A program made the translations under genes and the position numbers. A stretch of 64,000 nucleotides of DNA from a virus, in IMG/VR virus record IMGVR_UViG_3300042429_001107; one strand, given 5' to 3'. Under the pieces are notes generated by a model. It was not told the DNA's origin and made no database searches. It saw only the letters and a program-made list of their open reading frames with translations. Positions 1 to 48,048 of this stretch are shown here, piece by piece (the first letter of the stretch is position 1; every line of letters starts with the position of its first letter).

Positions 1-1
1 A

Positions 2-3000
2 GATGGAACTTCAGGAACAGATGGTTCTAGTGGAACTTCAGGAATAGATGGAACTTCAGGAACAGATGGTTCTTCAGGAACTTCAGGAATAGATGGAACT
101 TCAGGAACAGATGGTTCTTCAGGAACTTCAGGAATAGATGGAACTTCAGGAACAGATGGTTCTAGTGGAACTTCGGGTTTAAGTGGAATAGATGGTTCTT
201 CAGGAACATCAGGTTCTAGTGGTAGCTCGGGTTCAAGTGGATCTTCGGGAACATCAGGATCTTCAGGTACTTCTGGAGTAGACGGTTCAAGTGGAACTTC
301 AGGTTCAAGTGGAACTTCGGGAATAGATGGAACTTCAGGAACAAGTGGATCATCAGGAACTTCAGGAATAGATGGCTCTTCAGGAACTTCTGGATCTAGT
401 GGAACATCAGGTTCTAGTGGAACATCAGGAACTTCAGGAATAGATGGCTCTTCAGGAACTTCTGGATCTAGTGGAACATCAGGTTCTAGCGGATCTTCAG
501 GAACATCAGGAATAGATGGTTCAAGTGGAACTTCAGGATCTTCAGGAACATCAGGATCTAGTGGAACATCAGGATCTAGCGGTTCTTCAGGAACATCAGG
601 ATCTAGTGGATCTTCAGGAACGTCAGGTTCTTCAGGAACATCAGGATCTAGTGGAACATCAGGATCTTCAGGATCTTCAGGATCAAGCGGTACATCTGGT
701 TCTTCAGGAACATCAGGATCTAGTGGATCTTCAGGAACATCAGGCTCATCAGGTTCAAGCGGTGCATCTGGATCTAGTGGAACATCAGGTTCTAGCGGAT
801 CTTCAGGAACATCAGGATCTAGTGGATCTTCAGGAACATCAGGATCTAGTGGATCTTCAGGAACATCAGGTTCAAGCGGTACATCTGGTTCTTCAGGAAC
901 ATCAGGATCTAGTGGATCTTCAGGAACATCAGGTTCAAGCGGTACATCTGGTTCTTCAGGAACATCAGGATCTAGTGGATCTTCAGGAACATCAGGTTCA
1001 AGCGGTACATCTGGTTCTTCAGGAACATCAGGATCTAGTGGATCTTCAGGAACATCAGGTTCTAGTGGATCTTCAGGAACATCAGGTTCTTCAGGAACAT
1101 CAGGATCTAGTGGAACATCAGGCTTATCAGGCTCATCAGGTTCAAGCGGTACATCTGGATCTAGTGGAACATCAGGATCTAGTGGATCTTCAGGTACAAG
1201 GGGAACCTCTGGTATATCGGGGGTTAGTGGATCTAGTGGAACTTCGGGTTCATCTGGAACATCAGGTATCTCAGGATCTAGCGGAACATCGGGTTCTTCA
1301 GGTTCAAGCGGAGTATCAGGATCTTCAGGAACTAGCGGTAGCTCAGGATCTAGCGGTTCATCAGGAACATCAGGTTCTTCAGGATCTAGCGGATCTTCAG
1401 GAACATCAGGTTCAAGTGGATCTTCAGGAACAAGCGGTAGCTCAGGAACATCAGGAATAAGCGGTAGTTCAGGTTCTTCTGGAACATCAGGTTCTAGTGG
1501 TTCTTCAGGAACTAGCGGTAGCTCAGGAACATCTGGTTCAAGTGGTACATCAGGAAGTTCAGGAACATCAGGTTCAAGTGGTTCTTCAGGAACATCAGGA
1601 TCTAGCGGAACATCAGGTTCTTCAGGAACTAGCGGTAGTTCAGGTTCAAGTGGAGCATCAGGATCTTCAGGATCTTCAGGATCTTCAGGATCTTCAGGAT
1701 CTTCAGGATCTTCAGGAACATCAGGTTCAAGTGGAACATCAGGTTCAAGTGGAACATCAGGAACATCAGGAACATCAGGATCTTCAGGAACATCAGGATC
1801 TAGTGGATCATCAGGATCATCAGGATCTTCAGGAACTAGCGGTAGTTCAGGTTCAAGTGGAGCATCAGGATCTTCAGGATCTTCAGGAACATCAGGTTCA
1901 AGTGGAACATCAGGATCTTCAGGTTCAAGTGGAACATCAGGTTCAAGTGGAACATCAGGTTCTAGTGGATCTAGTGGAGCATCTGGTTCTTCAGGATCTT
2001 CAGGAACATCAGGAACATCAGGATCTAGCGGAACATCAGGATCTAGCGGAACATCAGGTTCAAGCGGAGTATCAGGATCTTCAGGATCTAGTGGATCTTC
2101 AGGAACATCAGGTTCTTCAGGAACATCAGGTTCTAGTGGATCTTCAGGAACATCAGGTTCTAGTGGATCTTCAGGAGCATCAGGTTCTAGCGGATCTTCA
2201 GGAACATCAGGTTCTTCAGGAACATCAGGAACATCAGGTTCAAGCGGAACATCTGGATCTAGTGGAACATCAGGTTCTTCAGGAACTAGCGGTAGTTCGG
2301 GTTCAAGTGGAGCATCAGGATCTTCTGGAACATCAGGAACATCAGGTTCAAGTGGAACATCAGGATCTAGTGGATCTAGTGGATCTTCAGGTTCAAGTGG
2401 AGCATCAGGATCTTCTGGAACATCAGGAACATCAGGTTCAAGTGGAACATCAGGATCTAGTGGAACATCAGGATCTAGTGGATCTTCAGGATCTAGTGGA
2501 ACATCAGGATCTTCAGGAACATCAGGTTCAAGCGGAACATCAGGATCTAGTGGATCTTCAGGATCTAGTGGATCTTCAGGATCTAGTGGAACATCAGGAA
2601 CATCAGGATCTAGTGGAACATCAGGATCTAGTGGATCTTCAGGATCTAGTGGAACATCAGGAACTTCAGGAACTAGCGGTAGTTCAGGTTCAAGTGGAAC
2701 ATCAGGATCTTCTGGAACATCAGGAACATCAGGATCAAGTGGAACATCAGGATCTTCAGGATCAAGTGGAACATCAGGATCTAGTGGATCTTCAGGAACA
2801 TCAGGTTCAAGTGGAACATCAGGTTCTTCAGGAACATCAGGATCTAGTGGTTCTTCAGGAACTAGTGGAACTTCTGGTAGCTCAGGTTCAAGTGGAGCAT
2901 CAGGATCTTCAGGATCTTCAGGATCTTCAGGAACATCAGGTTCAAGTGGAACTTCTGGTAGTTCAGGTTCAAGTGGAACATCAGGATCTAGTGGATCTTC

Positions 3001-6000
3001 AGGATCTTCAGGAACATCAGGTTCAAGTGGAACATCAGGATCTAGTGGATCTTCAGGAACATCAGGTTCAAGTGGAACATCAGGTTCAAGTGGAACATCA
3101 GGATCTAGTGGTTCTTCAGGAACTAGTGGAACTTCTGGTAGCTCGGGTTCTAGTGGTTCATCAGGAACATCAGGTTCAAGCGGATCTTCAGGAACATCAG
3201 GAACATCAGGTTCAAGCGGAACATCAGGATCTAGTGGTTCTTCAGGAACTAGTGGAACTTCTGGTAGTTCAGGTTCAAGTGGAACATCAGGATCTAGTGG
3301 AACATCAGGATCTTCAGGAACATCTGGAACATCAGGATCTAGTGGAACATCAGGTTCTTCGGGAACATCAGGTTCTTCGGGTTCTTCAGGAACATCAGGT
3401 TCTAGTGGATCTAGTGGATCTTCAGGAACATCAGGATCTTCAGGAACATCAGGAACATCAGGTTCAAGTGGAACATCAGGAACATCAGGATCAAGCGGAA
3501 CATCAGGATCTAGTGGATCTAGTGGATCTTCAGGATCTTCAGGATCTTCAGGAACATCAGGATCTAGTGGAACATCAGGATCTAGTGGAACATCAGGATC
3601 TTCAGGAACATCGGGAACATCAGGATCTAGTGGAACATCAGGATCTTCAGGAACATCTGGAACATCAGGATCTAGTGGAACATCAGGTTCTAGTGGATCT
3701 AGTGGATCTTCAGGAACATCAGGTTCAAGTGGAACATCAGGAACATCAGGATCAAGCGGAACATCAGGATCTAGTGGATCTAGTGGATCTTCAGGATCTT
3801 CAGGATCTTCAGGAACATCAGGATCTAGTGGAACATCAGGATCTAGTGGAACATCAGGATCTAGTGGATCTAGTGGAACATCAGGTTCAAGTGGAACATC
3901 AGGATCTAGTGGTTCTTCAGGAACTAGTGGAACTTCTGGTATATCAGGAGTTAATGGAACAAGTGGGACATCAGGCTCATCAGGAACTAGCGGTAGCTCA
4001 GGAACATCAGGTTCTTCCGGTTCTTCAGGGACTTCAGGATCTAGTGGAACATCAGGAACATCAGGAACATCAGGTTCTTCAGGAACATCAGGATCTAGTG
4101 GAACATCAGGATCTTCAGGAACTAGCGGTAGTTCAGGTTCAAGTGGAACATCAGGATCTAGTGGATCTAGTGGAACATCAGGATCTAGTGGAACATCAGG
4201 ATCTAGTGGAACATCAGGTTCAAGTGGATCTTCAGGATCTTCAGGAACATCGGGTTCAAGTGGAACATCAGGATCTAGCGGATCTAGTGGAACATCAGGA
4301 TCTAGTGGAACATCAGGTTCTTCAGGAACATCAGGAACATCAGGATCTAGTGGAACATCAGGATCTTCAGGAACTAGCGGTAGTTCAGGTTCAAGTGGAA
4401 CATCAGGATCTAGTGGATCTAGTGGAACATCAGGATCTAGTGGAACATCAGGATCTAGTGGAACATCAGGTTCAAGTGGATCTTCAGGATCTTCAGGAAC
4501 ATCGGGTTCAAGTGGAACATCAGGATCTAGCGGATCTAGTGGAACATCAGGATCTAGTGGAACATCAGGTTCTTCAGGAACATCAGGAACATCAGGATCT
4601 AGTGGAACATCAGGATCTTCAGGAACTAGCGGTAGTTCAGGTTCAAGTGGAACATCAGGATCTAGTGGATCTAGTGGAACATCAGGATCTAGCGGAACAT
4701 CAGGAACATCAGGTTCAAGTGGATCTTCAGGAACATCAGGATCTAGTGGAACATCAGGTTCTTCAGGAACATCAGGTTCAAGTGGTTCTTCAGGAACATC
4801 AGGTTCAAGTGGTTCTTCAGGAACATCAGGTTCAAGTGGTTCTTCAGGAACATCAGGTTCAAGTGGTTCTTCAGGATCTAGTGGATCTTCAGGAAAATCA
4901 GGATCTAGTGGAACATCAGGATCAAGTGGAACATCAGGAACATCAGGTTCTAGTGGATCTTCAGGAACATCAGGATCTAGTGGAACATCAGGATCAAGTG
5001 GAACATCAGGAACATCAGGTTCTAGTGGATCTTCAGGAACATCAGGATCTAGTGGAACATCAGGATCAAGTGGAACATCAGGAACATCAGGTTCTAGTGG
5101 ATCTAGTGGAACATCAGGATCTAGTGGAACATCAGGATCTTCAGGAACATCAGGATCTTCAGGTTCAAGTGGAACATCAGGATCTTCAGGTTCAAGTGGA
5201 ACATCAGGATCTTCAGGTTCAAGTGGAACATCAGGATCTTCAGGTTCAAGTGGAACATCAGGATCTTCAGGAACATCAGGTTCTAGTGGAACATCAGGAA
5301 CATCAGGTTCTAGTGGATCTTCAGGAACATCAGGTTCTTCAGGAACATCAGGTTCAAGTGGATCTTCAGGAACATCAGGTTCTAGTGGAACATCAGGTTC
5401 TTCAGGAACATCAGGATCTTCAGGTTCAAGTGGATCTTCAGGAACATCAGGTTCTAGTGGAACATCAGGAACATCAGGTTCTAGTGGATCTTCAGGAACA
5501 TCAGGTTCTTCAGGAACATCAGGTTCAAGTGGATCTTCAGGAACATCAGGTTCTAGTGGAACATCAGGTTCTTCAGGAACATCAGGATCTTCAGGAACAT
5601 CAGGATCTTCAGGTTCAAGTGGATCTTCAGGAACATCAGGAACATCAGGATCTTCAGGAACATCAGGATCTTCAGGAACATCAGGATCTTCAGGAACATC
5701 AGGTTCTTCAGGTTCAAGTGGATCTTCAGGAACATCAGGTTCTAGTGGAACATCAGGATCCAGTGGATCTAGTGGATCTAGTGGTTCTTCAGGTTCTAGT
5801 GGTAGATCAGGATCTTCAGGAACATCAGGTTCTAGTGGAACATCAGGATCTTCAGGAACATCAGGATCTTCAGGATCTTCAGGAACATCAGGATCTTCCG
5901 GAACTAGCGGTAGCTCAGGATCTAGTGGAACATCAGGAACATCAGGAACATCAGGAACATCAGGATCTTCAGGAACATCAGGATCTTCAGGTTCAAGTGG

Positions 6001-9000
6001 ATCTTCAGGAACATCAGGAACATCAGGAACTAGCGGTAGCTCAGGATCTAGTGGAACATCAGGAACATCAGGATCTAGTGGATCTTCAGGAACATCAGGA
6101 TCTTCAGGAACATCAGGATCTTCAGGTTCAAGTGGATCTTCAGGAACATCAGGAACATCAGGAACTAGCGGTAGCTCAGGATCTAGTGGAACATCAGGAA
6201 CATCAGGATCTAGTGGATCTTCAGGAACATCAGGATCTTCAGGAACATCAGGTTCTAGTGGAACAAGTGGATCTTCAGGAACATCAGGTTCTAGTGGATC
6301 TTCGGGAACATCAGGATCTAGTGGAACATCAGGATCTTCAGGATCTTCAGGAACATCAGGATCTTCAGGATCTAGTGGAACATCAGGAACATCAGGTTCA
6401 AGTGGATCTTCAGGATCTAGTGGATCTTCAGGAAAATCAGGATCAAGTGGAACATCAGGTTCTAGTGGAACAAGTGGATCTTCAGGAACATCAGGTTCAA
6501 GTGGATCTTCAGGAACATCAGGTTCTTCCGGTTCTTCAGGGACTTCAGGATCTAGTGGAACATCAGGAACATCAGGATCTAGTGGAACAAGTGGATCTTC
6601 AGGAACATCAGGATCTAGTGGTTCTTCAGGAACATCAGGATCTTCAGGATCTAGTGGATCTTCAGGAACATCAGGATCTAGTGGTTCTTCAGGAACATCA
6701 GGTTCTAGCGGAACATCAGGATCTAGCGGAACATCAGGTTCAAGTGGATCTTCAGGAACATCAGGTTCAAGTGGATCTTCAGGAACATCAGGTTCTAGTG
6801 GAACATCAGGATCTAGTGGAACATCAGGATCTTCAGGATCTTCGGGAACATCAGGATCTTCAGGAACATCAGGATCTTCAGGTTCAAGTGGATCTTCAGG
6901 AACATCAGGTTCTAGTGGAACATCAGGATCTAGTGGAACATCAGGATCTAGTGGATCTAGTGGTTCTTCAGGTTCTAGTGGTAGATCAGGATCTTCAGGA
7001 ACATCAGGATCTAGTGGAACATCAGGATCTTCAGGATCTTCGGGAACATCAGGATCTTCAGGAACATCAGGAACATCAGGATCTTCAGGTTCAAGTGGAT
7101 CTTCAGGAACATCAGGTTCTAGTGGAACATCAGGATCTTCAGGAACATCAGGATCTAGTGGTTCTAGTGGAACATCAGGATCTAGTGGATCTTCAGGAAC
7201 ATCAGGATCTTCAGGAACATCAGGATCTAGTGGAACATCAGGATCTTCAGGAACATCAGGATCTAGTGGTTCTAGTGGAACATCAGGATCTAGTGGAACA
7301 TCAGGATCTAGTGGATCTAGTGGTTCTAGTGGAACATCAGGATCTAGTGGAACATCAGGATCTAGTGGATCTAGTGGTTCTAGTGGTAAATCAGGATCTT
7401 CAGGAACATCAGGATCTAGTGGAACATCAGGATCTTCAGGAACATCAGGATCTAGTGGTTCTAGTGGAACATCAGGAGCTTCAGGTTCAAGTGGATCTTC
7501 AGGATCTTCAGGAACATCAGGATCTTCAGGAACATCAGGATCTAGTGGTTCTAGTGGAACATCAGGATCTAGTGGAACATCAGGATCTTCAGGAACATCA
7601 GGATCTAGTGGATCTTCAGGATCTTCAGGAACATCAGGATCTAGTGGAACATCAGGATCTAGTGGTTCTAGTGGAACATCAGGAGCTTCAGGAGCTTCAG
7701 GTTCAAGTGGATCTTCAGGATCTTCAGGAACATCTGGATCTAGTGGAACATCAGGAGCTTCAGGAGCTTCAGGTTCAAGTGGATCTTCAGGATCTTCAGG
7801 AACATCTGGATCTAGTGGAACATCAGGAGCTTCAGGAGCTTCAGGATCTAGTGGATCTTCAGGATCTTCAGGAACATCTGGATCTAGTGGAACATCAGGA
7901 TCTAGTGGTTCTAGTGGAACATCAGGAGCTTCAGGAGCTTCAGGTTCAAGTGGATCTTCAGGATCTTCAGGAACATCTGGATCTAGTGGAACATCAGGAG
8001 CTTCAGGAGCTTCAGGTTCAAGTGGATCTTCAGGATCTTCAGGAACATCTGGATCTAGTGGAACATCAGGAGCTTCAGGAGCTTCAGGATCTAGTGGATC
8101 TTCAGGATCTTCAGGAACATCTGGATCTAGTGGAACATCAGGAGCTTCAGGAGCTTCAGGTTCAAGTGGATCTTCAGGATCTTCAGGAACATCAGGATCT
8201 AGTGGAACATCAGGAGCTTCAGGAGCTTCAGGTTCAAGTGGATCTTCAGGATCTTCAGGAACATCAGGATCTAGTGGAACAAGTGGTAGCTCAGGAACAT
8301 CAGGTTCAAGTGGTTCAAGTGGAACATCAGGAGCTTCAGGTTCAAGTGGATCTTCAGGATCTTCAGGAACATCAGGATCTAGTGGAACAAGTGGTAGCTC
8401 AGGAACATCAGGTTCAAGTGGTTCAAGTGGATCTTCAGGAACAAGTGGTTCTAGTGGTTCTTCAGGTTCTAGTGGTAGATCAGGATCTTCAGGAACATCA
8501 GGATCTAGTGGAACATCAGGAATAGACGGAACTTCAGGAACTGATGGAAGATGGGGTAGTGATGGTTCAAATAGTGGAAGATGGTATAATGATGGAAGTT
8601 CTCCTGCACCTGCCAGTCCAAGTGGAGGAACCTTTGTTACGGATACACAAGTAATATCAACAATTTCATTGATTTCTATTAATATTTACGATATTAACAC
8701 AACCGATTATTACGATTGGCTTAAAGCTTTATCAGATTTAAGAACCGCAGGAAATAGAGGTTATCTACAAATAACAGAAGTAGGTAATAATAGTGTAATT
8801 GGAATCTATACTATTGGAAATAGAACAGATCATACTTCATATTGGGATATAGGCCTTACTTTTGTCACTGGTTCAGGTAATTTAACTGATGGTGGTCTTC
8901 ATACTGTTTCGTGGGTCTTTAATGGAACGAATGGATCTTCAGGAACATCAGGAGCTTCGGGAGCAAGCGGATCTTCAGGATCCTCAGGTTCTAGTGGAAC

Positions 9001-9694
9001 AAGTGGTAGCTCAGGAACATCAGGATCTAGTGGAACATCAGGATCTTCAGGAACATCAGGATCTTCAGGATCTAGTGGTTCTTCAGGTTCTAGCGGTAGA
9101 TCTGGTTCTTCTGGAACATCCGGATCTAGTGGAACATCAGGATCTTCAGGAACATCAGGATCACTTACAGTAACAGGGTCAACCGATAACGGTGTTATAA
9201 CTCTCAATGGAGCATCTCCAAATGTTGCTGTTGAATCAAATTTAACTTTTAATGCAACAGGTAATGTCTTTACAGTTAACGGTTCAATGGTTAATACACA
9301 TAGCCCAGCTACCCAATTAAGTGCTACTGGTGGATATGGTGATATTGTAACATTTGGTTCTGGATCTTTAACTGCTGGAAAAGTTTATTACTTCGGTTCT
9401 ACTGGAACATGGTTTGAAACAGATGCTGATGGAGCTTCAACAGCTACAGGAATGTTAGGAGTTGCTTTAAGTACAACTGCTGCTGGTGGACTTTTAGTTA
9501 GAGGTTATGCTAAAAGTATCCAATACTATACGGGAGCAACAGGAGCAATACTTTACTTATCCGGAACAGGAGGAGAAATCACTACAACTGCGCCAGCAGG
9601 AGCTTCAGATATTGTGAGAATAATTGGTTACCAAATAGATGGAGCAAATGATATAATTTACTTTAATCCTTCAAATGATTGGGTGGAAATTTAA
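2..9694 (+). CDS. Giant Gly-X-Y (GSS/GTS) collagen-like virion fibre protein, 5'-truncated (>3230 aa), with globular C-terminal domain (possible capsid cement/decoration-like anchor)
   Basis: Frame +2 reads DGTSGTDGSSGTSGID... from base 2 and is in frame with ORF 8669..9694. The junction 8522-8668 translates openly (IDGTSGTDGRWGSDGSNSGRWYNDG...TISL). The C-terminus has GAILYLSGTGGEITTTAP...IVRIIGY...IYFNPSNDWVEI. Confidence 0.9.
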   Translation, partial: DGTSGTDGSSGTSGIDGTSGTDGSSGTSGIDGTSGTDGSSGTSGIDGTSGTDGSSGTSGLSGIDGSSGTSGSSGSSGSSGSSGTSGSSGTSGVDGSSGTSGSSGTSGIDGTSGTSGSSGTSGIDGSSGTSGSSGTSGSSGTSGTSGIDGSSGTSGSSGTSGSSGSSGTSGIDGSSGTSGSSGTSGSSGTSGSSGSSGTSGSSGSSGTSGSSGTSGSSGTSGSSGSSGSSGTSGSSGTSGSSGSSGTSGSSGSSGASGSSGTSGSSGSSGTSGSSGSSGTSGSSGSSGTSGSSGTSGSSGTSGSSGSSGTSGSSGTSGSSGTSGSSGSSGTSGSSGTSGSSGTSGSSGSSGTSGSSGSSGTSGSSGTSGSSGTSGLSGSSGSSGTSGSSGTSGSSGSSGTRGTSGISGVSGSSGTSGSSGTSGISGSSGTSGSSGSSGVSGSSGTSGSSGSSGSSGTSGSSGSSGSSGTSGSSGSSGTSGSSGTSGISGSSGSSGTSGSSGSSGTSGSSGTSGSSGTSGSSGTSGSSGSSGTSGSSGTSGSSGTSGSSGSSGASGSSGSSGSSGSSGSSGSSGTSGSSGTSGSSGTSGTSGTSGSSGTSGSSGSSGSSGSSGTSGSSGSSGASGSSGSSGTSGSSGTSGSSGSSGTSGSSGTSGSSGSSGASGSSGSSGTSGTSGSSGTSGSSGTSGSSGVSGSSGSSGSSGTSGSSGTSGSSGSSGTSGSSGSSGASGSSGSSGTSGSSGTSGTSGSSGTSGSSGTSGSSGTSGSSGSSGASGSSGTSGTSGSSGTSGSSGSSGSSGSSGASGSSGTSGTSGSSGTSGSSGTSGSSGSSGSSGTSGSSGTSGSSGTSGSSGSSGSSGSSGSSGTSGTSGSSGTSGSSGSSGSSGTSGTSGTSGSSGSSGTSGSSGTSGTSGSSGTSGSSGSSGTSGSSGSSGTSGSSGTSGSSGTSGSSGSSGTSGTSGSSGSSGASGSSGSSGSSGTSGSSGTSGSSGSSGTSGSSGSSGSSGTSGSSGTSGSSGSSGTSGSSGTSGSSGTSGSSGSSGTSGTSGSSGSSGSSGTSGSSGSSGTSGTSGSSGTSGSSGSSGTSGTSGSSGSSGTSGSSGTSGSSGTSGTSGSSGTSGSSGTSGSSGSSGTSGSSGSSGSSGTSGSSGTSGTSGSSGTSGTSGSSGTSGSSGSSGSSGSSGSSGTSGSSGTSGSSGTSGSSGTSGTSGSSGTSGSSGTSGTSGSSGTSGSSGSSGSSGTSGSSGTSGTSGSSGTSGSSGSSGSSGSSGSSGTSGSSGTSGSSGTSGSSGSSGTSGSSGTSGSSGSSGTSGTSGISGVNGTSGTSGSSGTSGSSGTSGSSGSSGTSGSSGTSGTSGTSGSSGTSGSSGTSGSSGTSGSSGSSGTSGSSGSSGTSGSSGTSGSSGTSGSSGSSGSSGTSGSSGTSGSSGSSGTSGSSGTSGSSGTSGTSGSSGTSGSSGTSGSSGSSGTSGSSGSSGTSGSSGTSGSSGTSGSSGSSGSSGTSGSSGTSGSSGSSGTSGSSGTSGSSGTSGTSGSSGTSGSSGTSGSSGSSGTSGSSGSSGTSGSSGTSGTSGSSGSSGTSGSSGTSGSSGTSGSSGSSGTSGSSGSSGTSGSSGSSGTSGSSGSSGSSGSSGKSGSSGTSGSSGTSGTSGSSGSSGTSGSSGTSGSSGTSGTSGSSGSSGTSGSSGTSGSSGTSGTSGSSGSSGTSGSSGTSGSSGTSGSSGSSGTSGSSGSSGTSGSSGSSGTSGSSGSSGTSGSSGTSGSSGTSGTSGSSGSSGTSGSSGTSGSSGSSGTSGSSGTSGSSGTSGSSGSSGSSGTSGSSGTSGTSGSSGSSGTSGSSGTSGSSGSSGTSGSSGTSGSSGTSGSSGTSGSSGSSGSSGTSGTSGSSGTSGSSGTSGSSGTSGSSGSSGSSGTSGSSGTSGSSGSSGSSGSSGSSGRSGSSGTSGSSGTSGSSGTSGSSGSSGTSGSSGTSGSSGSSGTSGTSGTSGTSGSSGTSGSSGSSGSSGTSGTSGTSGSSGSSGTSGTSGSSGSSGTSGSSGTSGSSGSSGSSGTSGTSGTSGSSGSSGTSGTSGSSGSSGTSGSSGTSGSSGTSGSSGTSGSSGSSGTSGSSGTSGSSGSSGTSGSSGSSGTSGTSGSSGSSGSSGSSGKSGSSGTSGSSGTSGSSGTSGSSGSSGTSGSSGSSGTSGSSGTSGTSGSSGTSGSSGTSGSSGSSGTSGSSGSSGSSGTSGSSGSSGTSGSSGTSGSSGTSGSSGSSGTSGSSGSSGTSGSSGTSGSSGTSGSSGSSGTSGSSGTSGSSGSSGSSGTSGSSGTSGSSGTSGSSGSSGSSGSSGRSGSSGTSGSSGTSGSSGSSGTSGSSGTSGTSGSSGSSGSSGTSGSSGTSGSSGTSGSSGSSGTSGSSGSSGTSGSSGTSGSSGTSGSSGTSGSSGSSGTSGSSGTSGSSGSSGSSGTSGSSGTSGSSGSSGSSGKSGSSGTSGSSGTSGSSGTSGSSGSSGTSGASGSSGSSGSSGTSGSSGTSGSSGSSGTSGSSGTSGSSGTSGSSGSSGSSGTSGSSGTSGSSGSSGTSGASGASGSSGSSGSSGTSGSSGTSGASGASGSSGSSGSSGTSGSSGTSGASGASGSSGSSGSSGTSGSSGTSGSSGSSGTSGASGASGSSGSSGSSGTSGSSGTSGASGASGSSGSSGSSGTSGSSGTSGASGASGSSGSSGSSGTSGSSGTSGASGASGSSGSSGSSGTSGSSGTSGASGASGSSGSSGSSGTSGSSGTSGSSGTSGSSGSSGTSGASGSSGSSGSSGTSGSSGTSGSSGTSGSSGSSGSSGTSGSSGSSGSSGRSGSSGTSGSSGTSGIDGTSGTDGRWGSDGSNSGRWYNDGSSPAPASPSGGTFVTDTQVISTISLISINIYDINTTDYYDWLKALSDLRTAGNRGYLQITEVGNNSVIGIYTIGNRTDHTSYWDIGLTFVTGSGNLTDGGLHTVSWVFNGTNGSSGTSGASGASGSSGSSGSSGTSGSSGTSGSSGTSGSSGTSGSSGSSGSSGSSGRSGSSGTSGSSGTSGSSGTSGSLTVTGSTDNGVITLNGASPNVAVESNLTFNATGNVFTVNGSMVNTHSPATQLSATGGYGDIVTFGSGSLTAGKVYYFGSTGTWFETDADGASTATGMLGVALSTTAAGGLLVRGYAKSIQYYTGATGAILYLSGTGGEITTTAPAGASDIVRIIGYQIDGANDIIYFNPSNDWVEI
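5..8572 (+). repeat. 9-bp-period Gly-X-Y coding repeat (952 triplets by length) with higher-order units of 45, 63, 72, 243 and 252 bp
   Basis: Gly codons at 5, 3965, 7682 and 8564 all fall at position mod 9 = 5. Markers recur at 1/46/91/136 (45 bp), 875/938/1001 (63 bp), 4121/4373/4625 (252 bp) and 7682/7754/7826, 7925/7997/8069/8141/8213 (72 bp). Confidence 0.95.
8924..9166 (+). repeat. Second Gly-X-Y block (27 triplets) between two globular domains of the fibre
   Basis: GTNGSSGTSGASGASGSS...GTSGSL in the 8669..9694 translation. Confidence 0.9.
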
Positions 9695-9703
9695 TAAATA
9701 ATA

Positions 9704-9711
9704 GATAAATA
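9704..9711 (+). promoter_or_regulatory. Late-type promoter variant GATAAATA
   Basis: 4 nt upstream of ATG 9716; one mismatch to the recurrent GATATATA and one to T4 late TATAAATA. Confidence 0.5.
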
Positions 9712-9715: not shown

Positions 9716-10222
9716 ATGATTGCTAAAATAAGTGGAGTCACATTCAATCCACCCAGAACTACTGGTCAAACAACAGCCTATGCATCTAGTACAGCTGAGA
9801 GAGTAGTGAATTCGGTTATTATTCCTGGAGGTTCTCTCCGAAATGATGATCATCTAGGAATAGATTCGAGAGTAATTAAATCAGGAGCGTTTGGAACTGT
9901 TACTGTGAGAATAAGAATAGGTACAGTCGCTAATACATCTCAAACATTAGTTGCAACTTATACTTCCAGTTCGGCTGCACATACTTATGTTCCAATAATG
10001 AGAAGATTATTATTATATAATGTAGCTAGTTCCACCTATGTTTTTACAGCAGCTACATCAAATTCATGGGATTATGCAGGACCATCTATAGGATGGCAAA
10101 ACTTAACAACTATAGATTGGGCATCAGATCAATATATCATCATAACAACACAATGTGTAAGTGCTTCGGATACAATATATTGTCCTTATATAATAACAGA
10201 TTTTCAAGCAGCAGTAAGATAA
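9716..10222 (+). CDS. Fibre-associated beta-rich protein, paralogue 1 of 3
   Basis: 168 aa, Thr/Ser-rich; shares KISG, V-x-[IV]-[PA], IKSGA and late W..Y[IFL] pattern with the next two ORFs. Confidence 0.75.
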   Translation: MIAKISGVTFNPPRTTGQTTAYASSTAERVVNSVIIPGGSLRNDDHLGIDSRVIKSGAFGTVTVRIRIGTVANTSQTLVATYTSSSAAHTYVPIMRRLLLYNVASSTYVFTAATSNSWDYAGPSIGWQNLTTIDWASDQYIIITTQCVSASDTIYCPYIITDFQAAVR

Positions 10223-10223
10223 T

Positions 10224-10715
10224 ATGGCACAAACAAGAAAGAAAAATGGAATTGCGTTAAGAATTTCGGGTACGGGATTAAGATCAGCAGATCCTTGTTC
10301 AACTGAAAGTATTTTAGGGTCGGTGGCTATAGCCCCTGATTATTTAGTATCTGGAGCTATTATTACTACAACTAATGGAATAATTAAATCGGGTGCTACC
10401 AATGCATTTACAATTAAATTGTACTGGAATACCACAGTATCTCTTTCAGGAGCTTTGCAGATGGGAACATACTCAGTTGTCGCTGCTAATACATCACCTA
10501 ATCTTTTTAGAAGATTTGTTTTTGATTCGGCGACTACTGCTAAAGGCATGGTTTCTACATTTTCAGCAACTAACGATGTTGGGGATATTGCCACCACTGT
10601 AGCATCATACACTTTTTCTTCTTGGTTAATAAATGGGGGATATTTCTTTATAACAGGATTAAGGACTTCTGGAACTGAAACTCTACAATTAGTAAAAATG
10701 ACAATAGAAGTATGA
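10224..10715 (+). CDS. Fibre-associated beta-rich protein, paralogue 2 of 3
   Basis: 163 aa; RISG, IKSGA, RRF, W..GGYFFITG; tightly coupled to neighbours. Confidence 0.75.
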   Translation: MAQTRKKNGIALRISGTGLRSADPCSTESILGSVAIAPDYLVSGAIITTTNGIIKSGATNAFTIKLYWNTTVSLSGALQMGTYSVVAANTSPNLFRRFVFDSATTAKGMVSTFSATNDVGDIATTVASYTFSSWLINGGYFFITGLRTSGTETLQLVKMTIEV

Positions 10716-11227
10716 ATTCAAAAATATCAGGTAGGGCTTTAAATCCTTTCTATAACACCACGGTAAAAACAATTACTGGATCCACTGCATTAACAATATT
10801 ACAAAAAGTTTTTGTTCCTGCAGGAACTTATGAAGCAGGAGATCTTATAATCGTAAATATGTTAATGGGTAAAATAGGATCTGCTAGCAGTTTCACTCAC
10901 TGGCTATATGCCAGTCCAAACGATCCGGATGTTTCTGGTATTACTGGAGCGATTCAACTTTGGGTTAGAGGAACTGGTGCGGCACAATTATATATAGATC
11001 ACGGAAGACACCTTTACATAAAAAATACAACCGGTGGTGGAAGTGGAATAGAATTAGGAACTGAAGTTTTAGCAGTAGGAACTGCGGTATTTTCTGAAAT
11101 GAGAAGTGGGACTACGTCTAACGTTGCTATAAATTGGTCAAATGGAGTATATTTGTTTATGGCAGGACAATTAGCAAGTTCTTCTGATAGAATAGATCAA
11201 TACTACTTAAAAATATGGGATTATTAA
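10712..11227 (+). CDS. Fibre-associated beta-rich protein, paralogue 3 of 3
   Basis: 171 aa; KISG..NP, VFVPAG, INWSNGVYLFMAG; ATGA overlap with previous gene. Confidence 0.75.
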   Translation: MNSKISGRALNPFYNTTVKTITGSTALTILQKVFVPAGTYEAGDLIIVNMLMGKIGSASSFTHWLYASPNDPDVSGITGAIQLWVRGTGAAQLYIDHGRHLYIKNTTGGGSGIELGTEVLAVGTAVFSEMRSGTTSNVAINWSNGVYLFMAGQLASSSDRIDQYYLKIWDY

Positions 11228-11524: not shown

Positions 11525-14500
11525 ATGATAAAAGTTAGAGCTCATACATGCTATTTAGGAACAACTGGGTATTCTGCCCATGCTAGGGAATTCTTTAGGG
11601 GACTTTCCAAATATGTTGATTTAAGAGTGAGAAACTACACCTGGGACAGTGACCCTATGTATTTAAATGATATCGATTTTAAAATCATAGATAAGATAAC
11701 ATTAAGGACGCCAGAGGGAAAAGATGAAGATTTTCCAATTACTCACTCATTTCCGCAATTTCATTGGGCTAATTCAAATAGGGATTTCACACCAGATGTG
11801 GACATAGTTCTAATGGACATGAATCACAATTACTTTAATGAAGAGTACAATAGTAAGATTAAGATAGCATACACTGTATGGGAAAGCACAGAAATACCTG
11901 AAGGATTTTTCAATCAACTTTTAAAATTTGATTACTTATGGGTTGCAACTGAGTGGCATAAAGAAGTGGTTGTTAATCAAGGGTATCCTAAGCAAAAAGT
12001 TTTTGTAGTTAATGAGGGTGTTAGTAATGAATTTTTTGGAGACGTTGATATCCCGAATAACGTAAATGAAGAATATAAAGACGGAAGATTTAAGTTTTTA
12101 TTTTTTGGTAGATGGGATTACAGAAAATCCGTACCAGAAATAATCAATTCATTCTTAAAAGCATTTCCTAATAATGAACCAGTAGATCTTATTTTAAGTG
12201 CAGACAATCCTTATGCTGTCGATGGCATGAACACCACAGAGCAAAGGCTATTGCATTATGGATATAATGATCCAAGAATAAAAGTTAAACATTTTGTAAG
12301 TAGGGAAGAATACGTAGCATATTTAAAAAAAGGAAACGTTCTAATTACTTGTGCTAGAAGCGAAGGGTGGAATATACCGCTGATTGAAGCAATGGCTGCG
12401 GGTACACCTGTAATATATTCAGACTGGGGAGCTCAGTTAGAATTTGCATATGCTAAAGGAAATCCAGTTAAGATTAAAGAGGAACTTCCTGCAAATATAG
12501 GTGCAAAATTAGGATTTGCGGGAGACACTCCTGGACTTTATGCTGAGCCAGATTATGATGATTTAATTTCCGTTTTAAGGGATTGTTATGTTAATTATAA
12601 GCAAAGAAAAGAATGTGCTGTATTAGAGAAGAATTATATCATTAATAATTTTAATTGGGAGAATATTGGTAAAAAAGGATATGACACGTTATTAAGTGTT
12701 TCAGATTTTGAAATACCAAAGGTGTCAAAAAAAGAAGCAGTAGTTATATCATCTCATGCAGATACCAAAGAAAAAATATCAATTTTAAAAAGATCTGTAT
12801 TAGCTCTAAAAAAACAAGGGTATTTTGTGATAGTGTCTTCTCATATTTCTATTCCTGATGAGATATTAAAAATATCAGATTACTTTATATGTGAGACAGA
12901 TAATCCTGTGGTTATGTATGATGAGTTTAACAAATTGTCTAATTCAGTTCCCGTTTACTATTTAAAATACGATGATTTTGAGCTCAGTTATCCTTTAGAA
13001 TTTAATCACGGCTATGCTGCTCTTAGATTGATTTTAAATGGTGCTAGACTCTCTAAAAACTGTGGATTCAATAAAACACATTTCGTTAACTACGATTACA
13101 TTATAGACGACGAAAACACACTTATACGCCATTCCGAGTTATTAGAAGAAAACTCTATAGTTACATATAGATGGAATCCTGAAAATTCAATTAGCTCCTC
13201 TTCAATCAGCTCAGCATTTTTCTCTGGTATAAACGACGATATATTAAAATCTATAGAATCAACACAATCAAAGAGCGATTATTTTAGATATGATGGGGTA
13301 ACTATATTAGAAGACTTTATCTATAAAGTATTTACTGAGAATGATTTAAAAATGTGGATAGGAGACATAGAAGATGTTTCTAAGAAGAATGTAATTAATT
13401 CTGTAATAATACCAGCATATCCCATAATAAAAACAAAAAATGGTAAAATTAGCTACGTGTATTTAGGTCACGAATCTGCAGAAGGAAAAAATTATCTATG
13501 CGCAATAGGTAACGATGAGATATTAGAAGGTAAAATAATTAAAGGGGGAAAGACATTTGATTTCTCAGCAGGATCTTATCCTATGAATTTTTATCTAATC
13601 ACAGATGAAGAATTAGAAAACGGAGTAACTGTAGTTATTCCTAAATATGATCAGGTTTTTAATTACAACACAAAAACTAAAAAAGCATCAATATTAATAA
13701 ATAATAAGTCATTGATATTAAATCTAGAGGAGAATAAGAATAAGCCTAGATTTAATATAAATTTCTTTGAAGGTCCTTTTGTAGAAATAAAAGATGCAGA
13801 AGGTAAAGAATTCACGGTGGATTTTATAGATAATGATAAAGGAACTACACATTATACTACTAATTTAAAAAATAATACCTGGGCAAGATGTTCTATACAA
13901 TATTATAAAAATTGGTTAATTAGAATAAAAGATAAATCCACAGGAGATATCCACGAAGAAAGACTGGATCTAAAAGGTAAAAATGTTCTAATATCAATTG
14001 AATCTTCCTCTTTAGGAGATTCTCTTTCGTGGTTCCCTCATATTGAAGAATTCAGAAAAATACACGGATGTAATATTTTTTTAAGCACTTTTAAAAACGA
14101 ACTATTCATAAAAAACTATCCAGAAATAACATTTATAAATCCAGGTCAAGTCGTTAACAATCTTAATTCAATTTATAGAATAGGTTGGTTCTATGATGGA
14201 GACAGTTTTAATAAGGATAAAAATCCTAGAGATTTTAAAAATATCCCTATGCAGGCAACTACAACGGACATTCTAGGATTACCCCACACTAATTTAAGAG
14301 CAAATATAGTTATAAAAGATTCTTCTAGACCAATGGAAGAAGATTATGTTTGTATAGGTTATCATTCTACAGCTCAAACTAAATATTGGAATAATCCTAC
14401 AGGATGGCAAGAACTAGTCAATTGGCTAATTTCAAAAGGTAAAAAAGTTGTAATGATTAGTCATGAAGTAGATGGGTATATGGGTAATAAAAATCCGGAA

Positions 14501-14866
14501 GGGGTCATTTATATTGAGGGTGAAAAAACATTAGATAATGCAATAAGATACATTAAAAATTCAGAAATGTTTATTGGTATAGGATCAGGATTAAGTTGGC
14601 TTTCATGGTCTTTAGAAGTTCCAACCGTATTAATATCAGGATTCAGTACACCAAAAACAGAATTTTTAGGTCCTGACGTGATTCGCATATTTAACTCTAA
14701 TGTTTGTAATGGATGTTTTAATAGAGAAAGATTAGATGCAGGTGATTGGAATTGGTGTCCAGATCATAAAGGAACTGACAGACAATTTGAATGTACTAAA
14801 ACAATTACTAGTAAAGATGTAATAGAAAAAATAGAAAATTACTGGGAGGGTAACAAATCAGAATAG
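11525..14866 (+). CDS. Multi-domain glycosyltransferase: GT4-like + central GT-A-like + TibC/Aah-type (BAHT) protein O-heptosyltransferase
   Basis: N-term TGYSAHAR, YTVWE, GRWDYRK, RSEGWNIPLIEAMAAGTPVI (GT4). C-term SSSLGDSLSW, STAQTKYWNNPTGW, FIGIGSGLSWLSW and the four-Cys iron finger CNGC...WCPDHKG...FECTK (14705-14794). Confidence 0.85.
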   Translation: MIKVRAHTCYLGTTGYSAHAREFFRGLSKYVDLRVRNYTWDSDPMYLNDIDFKIIDKITLRTPEGKDEDFPITHSFPQFHWANSNRDFTPDVDIVLMDMNHNYFNEEYNSKIKIAYTVWESTEIPEGFFNQLLKFDYLWVATEWHKEVVVNQGYPKQKVFVVNEGVSNEFFGDVDIPNNVNEEYKDGRFKFLFFGRWDYRKSVPEIINSFLKAFPNNEPVDLILSADNPYAVDGMNTTEQRLLHYGYNDPRIKVKHFVSREEYVAYLKKGNVLITCARSEGWNIPLIEAMAAGTPVIYSDWGAQLEFAYAKGNPVKIKEELPANIGAKLGFAGDTPGLYAEPDYDDLISVLRDCYVNYKQRKECAVLEKNYIINNFNWENIGKKGYDTLLSVSDFEIPKVSKKEAVVISSHADTKEKISILKRSVLALKKQGYFVIVSSHISIPDEILKISDYFICETDNPVVMYDEFNKLSNSVPVYYLKYDDFELSYPLEFNHGYAALRLILNGARLSKNCGFNKTHFVNYDYIIDDENTLIRHSELLEENSIVTYRWNPENSISSSSISSAFFSGINDDILKSIESTQSKSDYFRYDGVTILEDFIYKVFTENDLKMWIGDIEDVSKKNVINSVIIPAYPIIKTKNGKISYVYLGHESAEGKNYLCAIGNDEILEGKIIKGGKTFDFSAGSYPMNFYLITDEELENGVTVVIPKYDQVFNYNTKTKKASILINNKSLILNLEENKNKPRFNINFFEGPFVEIKDAEGKEFTVDFIDNDKGTTHYTTNLKNNTWARCSIQYYKNWLIRIKDKSTGDIHEERLDLKGKNVLISIESSSLGDSLSWFPHIEEFRKIHGCNIFLSTFKNELFIKNYPEITFINPGQVVNNLNSIYRIGWFYDGDSFNKDKNPRDFKNIPMQATTTDILGLPHTNLRANIVIKDSSRPMEEDYVCIGYHSTAQTKYWNNPTGWQELVNWLISKGKKVVMISHEVDGYMGNKNPEGVIYIEGEKTLDNAIRYIKNSEMFIGIGSGLSWLSWSLEVPTVLISGFSTPKTEFLGPDVIRIFNSNVCNGCFNRERLDAGDWNWCPDHKGTDRQFECTKTITSKDVIEKIENYWEGNKSE

Positions 14867-38076: not shown

Positions 38077-38697
38077 ATGAGTCCCCAATTTTTAGTAATA
38101 GCTTATTATACTGAGAGCACACAATATGAAGTCCTAGCTGGTAATCTTGAGAAGACTTTACAAAACTTTAGTATTCCTTTTTATATAGAAGATATAGAGG
38201 ATTTAGGTTCTTGGGAAAAGAATACACATTACAAAGCACATTTTATTAAGAAATGTTTAAATGACAGAAATCAGGATCTTTTATATGTAGATGTTGATGC
38301 ACTCTTTAAACAATACCCAAGTCTTATACCAGATCTCACATGTGATATAGCATATAGAACGCAAGACTTCAGATGGAGAGCAGACGAAGCCCTATCAGGA
38401 ACTATCTTTCTAAAGAATAATGACAAGGTTAAGAGATTTGTTGATCGATGGATCCAACTAAATGAAGCCACACCCGCAGAAAGAATGAAACCTGAAACAT
38501 GGGAGCAAAAAAATATGCAAAGAGCTCATCGAGAAATGACCGAGATCGATTATTTCAATCTACCACCAGAATACACATTCATATTTGATCACATGAAAAC
38601 AATGTATCCAGGAACATCTCCAGTAATAGAGCATTATCAAGAGTCAAGAAATGTTCATAGAAATACGAATCAAAATCGTAATTTCAGGATAAGATAA
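38077..38697 (+). CDS. Nucleotide-diphospho-sugar transferase (GT-A, GT77/GT34-like)
   Basis: KAHFIKKCL, LLYVDVDA (DxD), SGTIFL, WEQ, IEHYQ. Confidence 0.75.
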   Translation: MSPQFLVIAYYTESTQYEVLAGNLEKTLQNFSIPFYIEDIEDLGSWEKNTHYKAHFIKKCLNDRNQDLLYVDVDALFKQYPSLIPDLTCDIAYRTQDFRWRADEALSGTIFLKNNDKVKRFVDRWIQLNEATPAERMKPETWEQKNMQRAHREMTEIDYFNLPPEYTFIFDHMKTMYPGTSPVIEHYQESRNVHRNTNQNRNFRIR

Positions 38698-38699
38698 GC

Positions 38700-40244: not shown

Positions 40245-40247
40245 TTC

Positions 40248-43057: not shown

Positions 43058-43061
43058 TATA

Positions 43062-43925: not shown

Positions 43926-43926
43926 T

Positions 43927-44544: not shown

Positions 44545-44545
44545 A

Positions 44546-45484: not shown

Positions 45485-45485
45485 A

Positions 45486-48041: not shown

Positions 48042-48048
48042 AAAAGTT

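Follow-up and report, generated by a model that had tools for sequence, protein, structure and literature searches.

An uncultured jumbo myophage from water, related to Lak and Tenacibaculum phages, encodes a fibre protein with at least 952 unbroken Gly-Ser/Thr-Ser collagen-type triplets, which lacks the usual collagen stabilisers and lies next to a gene for a protein-glycosylating enzyme, suggesting that it may be a sugar-stabilised collagen. The gene occupies the 5' end of the 64,000-nucleotide stretch of DNA analysed (hereafter the window; IMG/VR record IMGVR_UViG_3300042429_001107) and is cut by its edge, so that the N-terminus of the protein lies outside it. The triple helix, its glycosylation and its attachment to the virion are inferred from sequence and structure prediction alone.

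Translation of frame +2, which the first-pass annotation had itself set as a test, revealed a single open frame ending in a stop codon at 9692-9694, with Gly in phase at every triplet of the tract. The triplets are GSS (528), GTS (363), GAS (26) and 35 others; position X is occupied by S (530), T (369) and A (26), and position Y by S (932) and D (16). The tract contains no Pro and no Glu, only 3 Lys, 5 Arg and 16 Asp, and no KGD or KGE salt-bridge motifs. Both G bases of the Gly codon are invariant in 952 of 952 units while the third base varies, and Ser at Y is written with both TCN (626) and AGY (308) codons, indicating that the periodicity is held at the protein level and not only by DNA repeat identity (TRF unit identity of 65-70%). 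Slices of 560-600 aa score 270-290 bits each against Pfam Collagen (PF01391; cut-off 27.2). The ORFs at 516-1460 and 1497-8525 are frame +3 shadows, that frame having 12 stops across the tract, and an antisense frame, although stop-free, has no ATG, GTG or TTG in 2,895 codons. The longest exact internal DNA repeat is 362 bp and 95% of 151-mers are unique, so a few repeat units could have been miscounted by a short-read assembly, and no independent assembly spanning the whole tract was found.

The observation made in the first-pass annotation is therefore confirmed: the frame, the strict Gly phase, the absence of Pro, the near absence of charge and the open 5' end are all correct. Its interpretation is supported only in part. 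Collagen-like character is supported by Pfam, by the domain architecture and by homologues. The proposed length of about 0.8 micrometre is simple arithmetic (952 x 3 x 0.286 nm = 817 nm) and holds only if the tract is a straight triple helix. The suggestion that glycosylation supplies the missing stability gains real, though circumstantial, support from the neighbouring glycosyltransferase, from the recurrence of this pairing across phages and from a large glycan gene island in the same window. The alternative of a polyglycine-II bundle can not be excluded, yet it fits poorly, as there is not a single turn-like break in 952 triplets. The globular C-terminal modules, which make the protein a modular phage fibre rather than a bare repeat, had been overlooked (Table 1).

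Table 1. Features of the fibre locus and its surroundings in the window.
Position	Strand	Feature	Support
2..9694	+	Fibre gene, frame +2, cut at its 5' end by the window edge (3,230 codons plus stop)	Open frame running on into conserved globular domains that have phage homologues
5..8572	+	Main collagen-like tract: 952 uninterrupted G-[S/T/A]-S triplets, Pro-free, 1,831 Ser+Thr per chain	Gly periodicity and Pfam Collagen; GID and GTD triplets occur only in the first 57 and the last 6 triplets
8573..8923	+	Inter-collagen knot: conserved ~115-aa predicted beta-barrel plus one helix, entered through the motif DGSNSGRW	33-43% identical copies in 5 other phage loci; AF2 model pLDDT 81; no clear solved relative (best Z 6.1)
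8924..9166	+	Second collagen-like tract, 27 triplets	Pfam Collagen, 46.9 bits
9167..9274	+	Beta-rich neck holding the most confident predicted inter-chain contacts	Predicted homotrimer; interface residues 82-135 of window positions 8915-9691
9275..9691	+	C-terminal ~135-aa predicted beta-tulip/Phage_cement_2-like domain, predicted to trimerise; always at the extreme C-terminus in homologues	Module in about 55 fibre proteins; AF2 pLDDT 73-91; fold matches (see text); 52% identical to the C-terminus of the Flavobacterium phage immuto 'tail fiber protein'
9716..11227	+	Three tandem divergent paralogues (168, 163, 171 aa), 21 nt after the fibre gene, probably part of the cassette	21-23% identical to one another; each has an orthologue in the same order in another locus (L002); only phage-only hypothetical families match
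11525..14866	+	1,113-aa fusion glycosyltransferase: GT4 domain (about residues 100-390) plus TibC/Aah-type O-heptosyltransferase-family domain (residues 746-1104)	Pfam and PHROG; TibC 4rap, E 5e-62; TIGR04414, 307 bits (cut-off 200)
38077..55039	.	Glycan gene island: GT2, GT7-like, GT11, GT25, GT10, GT29, CST-I-like and Maf/MptE-like transferases, nucleotide-sugar enzymes and a CMP-sugar cytidylyltransferase	Genomic context; any link to the fibre is inference only

The phage context is given by a gp23-type capsid protein and a prohead protease at 22-26 kb; relatives are Lak, Tenacibaculum, Chryseobacterium and Flavobacterium phages. Homologues show that fibres of this kind are real. A 271-kb phage genome rated 100% complete (G001) has a 3,730-aa homologue consisting of an N-terminal domain, 353 triplets, a globular domain, 639 triplets, the same knot (36% identity), a short collagen tract and a different C-terminal domain. 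The 639-triplet tract is the same length in contigs from three metagenomes, one of which differs at 27 positions and thus represents a separate population. In contrast, the count of 952 rests on one assembly, and three related contigs (G003, G004 and L148) also begin inside the tract, indicating that assemblers fail here. Contig G004, with a capsid protein 88% identical to that of the window, has a syntenic fibre with a 34%-identical knot but a different C-terminal domain and different downstream genes. The C-terminal module is shared by otherwise different fibre proteins, and in phage immuto it belongs to a gene set among tail genes.

To evaluate trimerisation, three copies of the segment encoded at 8915-9691 were modelled together, with an ipSAE of 0.94 against 0.00 for the best of 3 controls. 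This mark was reached by 20 of 30 proteins solved as pairs of one chain and by 1 of 23 solved as single chains, although the present run used its own alignment and three copies, unlike the calibration. The runs agree in at least 38% of contacts and the partner's pLDDT is at least 73. The model supports binding but does not show it.

The glycosyltransferase encoded 1.8 kb downstream of the fibre gene is a true TibC/Aah family member by sequence, with the catalytic Asp conserved. Asp110, Thr226, Lys230, Trp305 and all four iron-finger Cys of TibC are aligned and conserved, whereas Arg286 aligns to Ala and the donor-selectivity residue Pro300 to Gly. No heptose-nucleotide pathway was found among the window genes scanned. 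The pairing of fibre and enzyme recurs in at least 7 other phage lineages. Of 63 fibre loci, 11 (7 independent lineages) carry a TibC-like gene within the flank, against 249 such contigs among 2.9 million. Locus L005 has the same fused enzyme 3 kb downstream, and G001 has GT4 and TibC-like genes just after its fibre. Also, tracts of 20 or more G-X-Y triplets lie within 10 kb of 24 of 71 TibC-like loci, against 2 of 51 control loci around the capsid gene of the same phage clade (Fisher p 4e-5). The enzyme is however not tied to collagen everywhere: 54 of 80 phage loci with it show no Ser/Thr-rich ORF within 10 kb, and G004 keeps the enzyme although the visible part of its tract is Ala/Gln-rich. 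Five contigs with 71-83% identical capsid proteins lack the enzyme, although they are only 36-86% complete. With regard to stability, salt bridges of the KGD/KGE type have been argued to be the general folding aid of long collagens, and Gal-Thr is reported to make (Gly-Pro-Thr)10 triple-helical (PMC11923368).

The explanation favoured here, with moderate confidence, is that the window carries the 3' 9.7 kb of one gene for a giant modular virion fibre, homotrimeric, collagen-like and probably O-glycosylated, of a phage whose host is probably a member of the Bacteroidota. In this view, three identical chains would be brought into register by the C-terminal beta-tulip-like domain and neck, the 27-triplet helix would form, the knot would re-register the chains, and the long tract would then zip up towards the N-terminus into a thin triple helix about 0.8 micrometre long or more. 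In the absence of Pro or Hyp and of Lys-Asp/Glu clamps, stability and stiffness are proposed to come from the ~1,800 exposed Ser/Thr hydroxyls per chain and from O-glycans, which the neighbouring enzyme would add and the large glycan gene set of the phage may extend. The unseen N-terminus would hold the fibre on the virion, while the C-terminal module and the three small downstream proteins, in this view exchangeable between relatives, would form the distal end and serve adhesion or host finding. The frame, periodicity, composition, domain architecture, homologues, family membership of the glycosyltransferase and gene linkage are established by the analysis; the triple helix, the glycosylation, the polarity on the virion and the function remain inferences.

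A head fibre of opposite polarity, in which the C-terminal domain would be a decoration (cement) trimer seated on the capsid lattice and the collagen rod would project outwards as hair, as in the phi29 head fibre gp8.5 or the capsid-binding collagen-like gp12 of SPP1, is possible but considered unlikely. In a fold search that gave 32 chains with Z of 2 or more, all but one of 29 of these are capsid decoration proteins of tailed phages, herpesvirus triplex proteins or chains from capsid reconstructions (among them Pam3 8hdt_G, Z 8.9, 132 aligned, rmsd 9.4; HFTV1 8qsy_JI, Z 8.3, 112 aligned, rmsd 3.6; Adjutor 8saj_3, Z 8.3, 111 aligned, rmsd 3.1; phi29 gp8.5 base, Z 4.7), yet the Z values are near the stated noise level of 7-8. 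The best Foldseek hit is an Adjutor chain (E 2e-3), and an ESM Atlas cluster with PF09956 (Phage_cement_2) on 19% of its members matches at TM 0.78, although PF09956 does not match by sequence. The predicted trimerisation, the hair-like head fibres of the Tenacibaculum jumbo phages PTm1 and PTm5, whose capsid proteins are relatives of this one, and the location of the gene about 15 kb from the head genes would also agree with this polarity. However, a capsid anchor should track the capsid protein, whereas the C-terminal domains of the G004 and G001 fibres are unrelated to that of the window. The same fold sits at the C-terminus of many long phage proteins named tail-fibre-like or carrying an Mtd N-terminal domain, and it matches the cleaved C-terminal autochaperone of the phi29 tail appendage gp12 (3gqh, Z 6.5, rmsd 2.8). 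In beta-tulip decoration proteins it is the N-terminal arm that binds the capsid (PMC7602432), and here that end is joined to the rod.

It is also unlikely that the tract is not a triple helix but an extended, heavily O-glycosylated mucin-like spacer, a bottle-brush like the serine-rich repeat adhesins, or a polyglycine-II type assembly. Ser and Thr have only middling triple-helix propensity in host-guest peptide work, there is no Pro, (Gly-Pro-Thr)10 without sugar is a random coil (PMC11923368) and a gene for a predicted protein O-glycosyltransferase is adjacent. Yet a disordered spacer does not need Gly at every third residue, which is kept here despite codon divergence and also in homologues whose X/Y residues differ (locus L050, Ala/Phe/Leu; locus L014, Leu/Ile; G004, Ala/Gln). 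Known polyglycine-II bundles are built from short segments joined by turns, whereas there is no interruption in 2,856 residues, and the tracts are bracketed by domains predicted or expected to trimerise. Least likely is that the length is an assembly product, with repeat units duplicated or two loci joined, and that the true uninterrupted tract is much shorter. This reading draws on the exact internal repeats of 362, 264 and 173 bp, on the start of the window and the breaks of three related assemblies inside the tract, on the many indels with which L148, from another sample, aligns to it, and on a related phage (G007) with a 695-aa protein of this knot-bearing family about 24 kb upstream of its capsid gene. 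Against it stand the high proportion of unique 151-mers, the tendency of repeats to collapse more often than expand in short-read assemblies, the never broken frame, and the tracts of 639 and 353 triplets in G001-type phages, reproduced in separate metagenomes.

Among known systems, BclA, the collagen-like exosporium filament of Bacillus anthracis, is a microbial Gly-X-Thr/Ser rod whose hydroxy residues carry O-glycans (glycosylation cited in PMC11923368). It ends in a C-terminal globular trimer that sets the register, and it appears weakly among the PDB sequence hits (1wck, E 0.045). BclA has however tens of triplets, mostly GPT and thus Pro-rich, a C1q/TNF-like jelly-roll head and glycosyltransferases unrelated to TibC, and is a spore rather than a virion protein. 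Collagen-like phage tail fibres and minor tail proteins (PHROGs 'collagen like minor tail', tail fibres with a Peptidase_S74 chaperone, prophage EPclA of E. coli O157) are trimeric and use G-X-Y stretches as spacers between globular modules. The known ones have tens of triplets, up to about 100, and contain Pro or charged residues, while the present protein has at least 952 unbroken triplets with neither Pro nor more than a few charges, no S74 chaperone domain and a genetic pairing with a protein glycosyltransferase. In TibC-TibA and Aah-AIDA-I, bacterial autotransporter heptosyltransferase systems (PMC4358343), the enzyme is likewise encoded beside a long repetitive Ser-rich surface protein, but the presumed substrate here is a collagen-like rod instead of a beta-helix passenger domain, and the enzyme is fused to a GT4 domain.

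In Riftia/Alvinella cuticle collagen and Gal-Thr model peptides, glycosylated Thr takes the stabilising place of hydroxyproline in a collagen helix (references 28 and 103 of PMC11923368). Those collagens still contain Pro, are animal proteins and have measured glycosylation, whereas here Ser dominates and glycosylation is inferred. The phi29 head fibre gp8.5, SPP1 gp12 and T4 fibritin are trimeric accessory fibres of tailed phages with a small globular trimerising or anchoring domain at one end: gp8.5 has a beta-tulip base, gp12 is collagen-like and fibritin folds from a C-terminal foldon. They are tens of nanometres long and are coiled-coil or very short collagen, and the present fibre would be one to two orders of magnitude longer. 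In mycobacteriophages, phage-encoded glycosyltransferases decorate the phage's own structural proteins (Freeman et al. 2023, cited in PMC12619734); there the glycans, shown by experiment, sit on C-terminal tails of the capsid and tail-tube subunits, while here the candidate target is a collagen-like fibre and the enzyme family differs.

The open reading frame of the fibre gene in frame +2 has no start inside the window, and from the beginning of the tract to its end Gly occurs at every third residue, giving 952 consecutive G-X-Y triplets (952 of 952), exactly the number counted in the first-pass annotation, whose observation is hereby confirmed. The tract consists almost only of GSS (528), GTS (363) and GAS (26) triplets and contains no Pro, no Glu, no KGD or KGE motif and only 3 Lys, 5 Arg and 16 Asp in 2,856 residues. 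Asp- and Ile-containing triplets (GID, GTD, GVD) are confined to its first 57 and last 6 triplets, the latter abutting the following domain, suggesting that the 5' edge of the window may lie close to another domain boundary. The two G bases of the Gly codon never vary while third positions do, Ser at Y is written with both TCN and AGY codons, and the DNA repeat units are only 65-70% alike. The periodicity is therefore kept by selection on the protein and not by recent DNA amplification alone. The Pfam Collagen profile (PF01391) scores 270-290 bits on each slice of about 600 aa against a gathering threshold of 27.2, although much of this score comes from Gly periodicity alone. The two ORFs reported in frame +3 are shadows, and so is a minus-strand frame that is free of stops (a Pro-x-x repeat) but has no ATG, GTG or TTG in 2,895 codons, on which ground an antisense reading was rejected. 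The polyglycine-II bundle of the snow-flea antifreeze type, proposed in the first-pass annotation as an alternative fold, is built from short Gly-X-X segments joined by turns into an antiparallel bundle, and neither a break of phase nor a turn-like insertion was found in the 2,856 residues. Coordinates of the features are collected in the table.

Coordinates of the fibre gene, its surroundings and the related loci discussed in the text
Sequence	Coordinates	Feature
Window	2 to stop at 9692-9694	Fibre gene, open frame +2
Window	5-8572	Main tract of 952 G-X-Y triplets
Window	1-430 and 8530-8572	Regions with Asp- and Ile-containing triplets
Window	516-1460	Shadow ORF, frame +3
Window	1497-8525	Shadow ORF, frame +3
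Window	1-8685	Stop-free shadow frame, minus strand
Window	8924-9166	Second collagen-like tract, 27 triplets
Window	9716-11227	Three tandem paralogues
Window	11525-14866	GT4-TibC/Aah-type fusion glycosyltransferase
Window	15134-19131	DNA-repair-like genes, including a protein with a UvrB/UvrC motif
Window	16546-17337	MptE/Maf-like protein
Window	17327-18124	UvdE-like UV endonuclease
Window	18436-19131	PolB-exonuclease-like protein
Window	22482-24515	Prohead protease
Window	24527-26242	gp23-type major capsid protein
Window	31564-32973	Asparagine synthase (GATase plus Asn_synthase domains)
Window	38077-55039	Glycan gene island
G004 (L151)	C1:1-2395	Syntenic fibre locus
G001 (L016)	11131-13743	Second collagen-like gene
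G007 (L236)	11855-13942	Complete 695-aa member of the fibre family

The presence of the major capsid protein and the prohead protease assigns the window to a tailed phage. The nearest named capsid relatives are Lak megaphages of Prevotella and phages of Tenacibaculum, Chryseobacterium, Flavobacterium and Sphingomonas, and IMG/VR holds 225 contigs with capsid proteins up to 91% identical, the 80 listed being 65-91%. After the long tract the protein continues with a domain of about 115 aa (the knot) entered through the conserved motif DGSNSGRW, the second collagen-like tract, a beta-rich neck and a C-terminal domain of about 135 aa. The knot recurs at 33-43% identity in five other phage loci and is predicted, with pLDDT 81, to fold as a small beta-barrel with one helix, for which no clear solved relative was found (best Z 6.1, Foldseek E above 0.1). 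The C-terminal domain is a module found at the extreme C-terminus of about 55 otherwise different phage proteins of 346-1,363 aa, half of them with collagen repeats, and is 52% identical to the end of the 'tail fiber protein' of Flavobacterium phage immuto, whose gene lies among tail genes. As no paper in the literature searched describes the immuto protein, its name is annotation only. The window holds no paralogue of the knot or of the C-terminal domain, and no Peptidase_S74 chaperone domain (PF13884) was detected by profile search, although other giant collagen-like phage proteins do carry it. A PDB hit, 8zxl ('spindlefibril | axialfibril'), was set aside because it aligns as a repeating GAPGSQ-type collagen sequence, and a literature search on those names gave nothing relevant.

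The closest IMG/VR relatives of the C-terminal part lie at contig ends. Two syntenic contigs, G003 and G004 (the latter with a capsid protein 88% identical to that of the window), begin inside their collagen tracts, and so does an independent JGI contig (sample 3300046001), about 94% identical overall with many indels in the tract and probably from a related strain. Run SRR6476078 yielded a contig 99.98% identical to window positions 9133-14754. Assemblers break here, and the window edge is probably such a break. Exact 46-nt pattern searches of viral and metagenome contigs returned nothing, the 3,230-aa product is not on record, and the far ends of G003 and G004 hold no collagen tract, so that the N-terminus was not recovered. 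The tract has exact internal repeats of up to 362 bp, although 95% of its 151-mers are unique, and the exact number 952 therefore remains a single-assembly value. The class itself, in contrast, is solid. G001, a 271-kb phage genome rated 100% complete, encodes a 3,730-aa protein built as an N-terminal domain, 353 triplets, a globular domain, 639 triplets, the same knot, a short collagen tract and another C-terminal domain. The 639-triplet tract has the same length in contigs from three metagenomes, one of which differs at 27 positions. Other phage loci carry Pro-poor tracts of 507, 369 and 342 triplets with other X residues. Length also varies a great deal within the clade, since G007, a further phage of the clade, has a 695-aa member of the same knot-bearing family at a similar position.

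Three copies of the last 259 residues are predicted to form a trimer, with an ipSAE of 0.94 against 0.00 for the best of three controls. This mark was reached by 20 of 30 proteins solved as pairs of one chain and by 1 of 23 solved as single chains, but the calibration differs from the present run, in which a custom alignment of window and IMG/VR rows only and three copies were used. The runs agree in at least 38% of contacts and the partner's pLDDT is at least 73. Confident contacts lie in the neck and the C-terminal domain and none is named before residue 82, so that the model says nothing either way about a triple helix in the 27-triplet part, where the AF2 monomer is below pLDDT 50, as expected for a single chain. 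Collagens fold from a C-terminal nucleus towards the N-terminus (PMC11923368), and a C-terminal trimeriser, followed by a knot that would re-register the chains before the long tract, fits that scheme. At 0.286 nm per residue, 952 triplets in such a helix would give 817 nm. The tract lacks both known stabilisers, namely Pro/Hyp in X/Y and the KGD/KGE salt bridges presented as the common folding aid of long collagens in all domains of life and in viruses (PMC11923368). What remains is its ∼1,800 hydroxyl side chains per chain, and whatever is attached to them.

The gene located 1.8 kb downstream of the fibre encodes a 1,113-aa fusion of a GT4 domain and a TibC/Aah-type domain. The second domain matches TibC (4rap) at E 5e-62 and passes the NCBI equivalog model of the bacterial autotransporter heptosyltransferases (BAHT; TIGR04414) over nearly its full length, with 307.2 bits against a cut-off of 200 and profile positions 15-372 of 374. 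The catalytic base Asp110, the sugar-binding Thr226, Lys230 and Trp305 (residue list from PMC4358343) and the four iron-finger cysteines (Cys339, Cys342, Cys358, Cys370) are all aligned to identical residues. However, sugar-binding Arg286 aligns to Ala, with an Arg two residues later, and the donor-selectivity residue (Pro300 in TibC, Ser in Aah) aligns to Gly, so the donor may not be ADP-heptose. The glycan gene island of the window carries GT2, GT7-like, GT11, GT25, GT10, GT29, CST-I-like and two Maf/MptE-like transferases, together with an epimerase, a UDP-sugar dehydrogenase, an SDR, a DHQ-synthase-like enzyme, a class III aminotransferase, an FkbM methyltransferase and a CMP-sugar cytidylyltransferase, suggesting a nonulosonic-acid-type sugar and protein O-glycosylation, whereas no heptose-nucleotide pathway turned up among the island genes scanned. 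A third MptE/Maf-like protein, a weak hit of 22 bits below the cut-off, lies between the fibre-adjacent glycosyltransferase and the head genes.

TibC and Aah hyper-glycosylate Ser residues of a neighbouring repetitive adhesin (PMC4358343), and the pairing of this type of enzyme with collagen-like fibres recurs among phages. A TibC-like gene is carried in the flank by 11 of 63 fibre loci, in 7 independent lineages, and one of these loci (L005) has the same fusion 3 kb downstream of its fibre. G001 has GT4-methyltransferase and TibC-like genes right after its fibre and a second collagen-like gene, and the knot domain also turned up in loci retrieved through the enzyme. Tracts of 20 or more G-X-Y triplets lie within 10 kb of 24 of 71 TibC-like loci, against 2 of 51 control loci around the capsid gene of the same clade (p 4e-5). 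Yet the link is not universal. TibC/Aah-type glycosyltransferases are widespread in uncultured phages (249 contigs in IMG/VR), and of the 80 best matches, 46-65% identical to the enzyme of the window, 54 show no Ser/Thr-rich ORF within 10 kb and most have no collagen-like or Ser/Thr-rich gene at that distance, so the family must have other substrates or more distant ones. Several relatives by capsid protein lack the enzyme in the sequence available, and G004 keeps it although the visible part of its tract is Ala/Gln-rich. The strict phase, the composition, the membership of the enzyme in its family and the linkage of the two genes are established, whereas the winding of three chains in a triple helix, the O-glycosylation of the tract by this enzyme and the placement of the fibre on the virion are inferred, glycosylation being a well-motivated inference. 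The interpretation offered in the first-pass annotation is supported in part.

As to which end of the fibre is free, the predicted fold of the C-terminal domain matches almost only capsid decoration (beta-tulip) proteins and herpesvirus triplex proteins, in a list of capsid-protein hits that is remarkably uniform. The best rows are Z 8.9 (132 aligned, rmsd 9.4) and Z 8.3 (111-112 aligned, rmsd 3.1-3.6), values near the noise level of the method, while the phi29 head-fibre base scores Z 4.7 and the cleaved C-terminal autochaperone of the phi29 tail appendage gp12 scores Z 6.5 at rmsd 2.8. An Atlas cluster partly annotated Phage_cement_2 also matches. These matches would fit a head fibre seated on the capsid, and the related Tenacibaculum phages PTm1 and PTm5 do have hair-like head fibres. 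However, a domain that binds the capsid lattice should co-vary with the capsid protein, and this one is replaced by unrelated domains in G004, despite the 88% identity of the capsid proteins, and in G001. It is also shared by many unrelated long fibres, some named tail-fibre-like, and has no sequence match to the cement family (no PF09956 hit at E up to 0.01). Furthermore, in known beta-tulip proteins the N-terminal arm, here joined to the rod, is what binds the capsid. A distal, exchangeable C-terminus that nucleates folding and perhaps binds a ligand, with the unseen N-terminus on the virion, is therefore favoured, and the head-fibre reading is retained as unlikely. Profile searches of the N-terminal domains of the G001 and G007 relatives and of their upstream genes against Pfam and PHROGs gave nothing that says head or tail.

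Collagen-like stretches in phage fibres, O-glycosylated G-X-T collagen (BclA), glycosylated-Thr collagen (Riftia), TibC/Aah enzymes and phage virion glycosylation are each known. What is new, as far as the papers searched show, is their combination and its extreme form, that is, about a thousand unbroken triplets with neither Pro nor salt bridges, in a modular knot-bearing fibre family of jumbo phages, genetically paired with a TibC-type enzyme. A paper on a related lineage of large aquatic phages notes core glycosyltransferases but no collagen (PMC12619734). Triple-helix stability is explained in collagen research by Pro/Hyp and, more recently, also by Lys-Asp/Glu clamps said to be common to all domains of life and to viruses (PMC11923368). 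This protein has neither, yet selection keeps every Gly, and the same holds in relatives with other X/Y residues. It is therefore a natural and directly testable case for what a triple helix minimally needs and whether glycans alone can carry it, as the candidate enzyme is encoded next door. A fibre of 0.8 micrometre or more would be several times the size of the virion and would change how host encounter is pictured in dilute water, and a Pro-free, uncharged, glycosylatable collagen made without prolyl hydroxylase would be of interest for biomaterials. A bolder possibility, doubtful on present evidence, is that of a 'glyco-collagen', a homotrimeric helix about one micrometre long holding together without proline, hydroxyproline or salt bridges through dense O-glycosylation of Ser/Thr by a phage-borne TibC/Aah-type enzyme. 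If true, this would be a third general way to stabilise collagen and the longest appendage known on a bacterial virus, used as a long-range line to catch hosts or particles.

The fibre gene is followed by three tandem, translationally close paralogues of 163-171 aa, 21-23% identical to one another, which match only phage-only hypothetical families. A promoter and terminator scan of positions 9500-11700 was uninformative. The same three genes follow the fibre in the same order at another phage locus, L002 (45% identity for the first), whereas in the close relative G004 they are replaced by four unrelated ORFs. The syntenic fibre of G004 keeps the DGSNSGRW knot, but its triplets are GAQ/GAA/GLQ-rich instead of GSS/GTS and its C-terminal domain is unrelated. 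X/Y composition and the tip turn over fast while Gly phase and knot persist. DNA-repair-like genes lie between the fibre module and the head module, and the window also holds a phage-encoded asparagine synthase. The prohead protease domain (S77/S80) occupies only the first ∼160 residues of a 678-aa protein, the long remainder of which may be a fused scaffold. In G001 the 3,730-aa Pro-free fibre is directly followed by a second collagen-like gene of 870 aa, this one containing Pro in X (runs of 118 and 95 triplets). The 695-aa member of the fibre family in G007 starts with a short N-terminal peptide containing GYAPLDSEGKVP, directly followed by collagen triplets, and its gene is followed by that of a ConA-like lectin (Laminin_G_3) structural protein.
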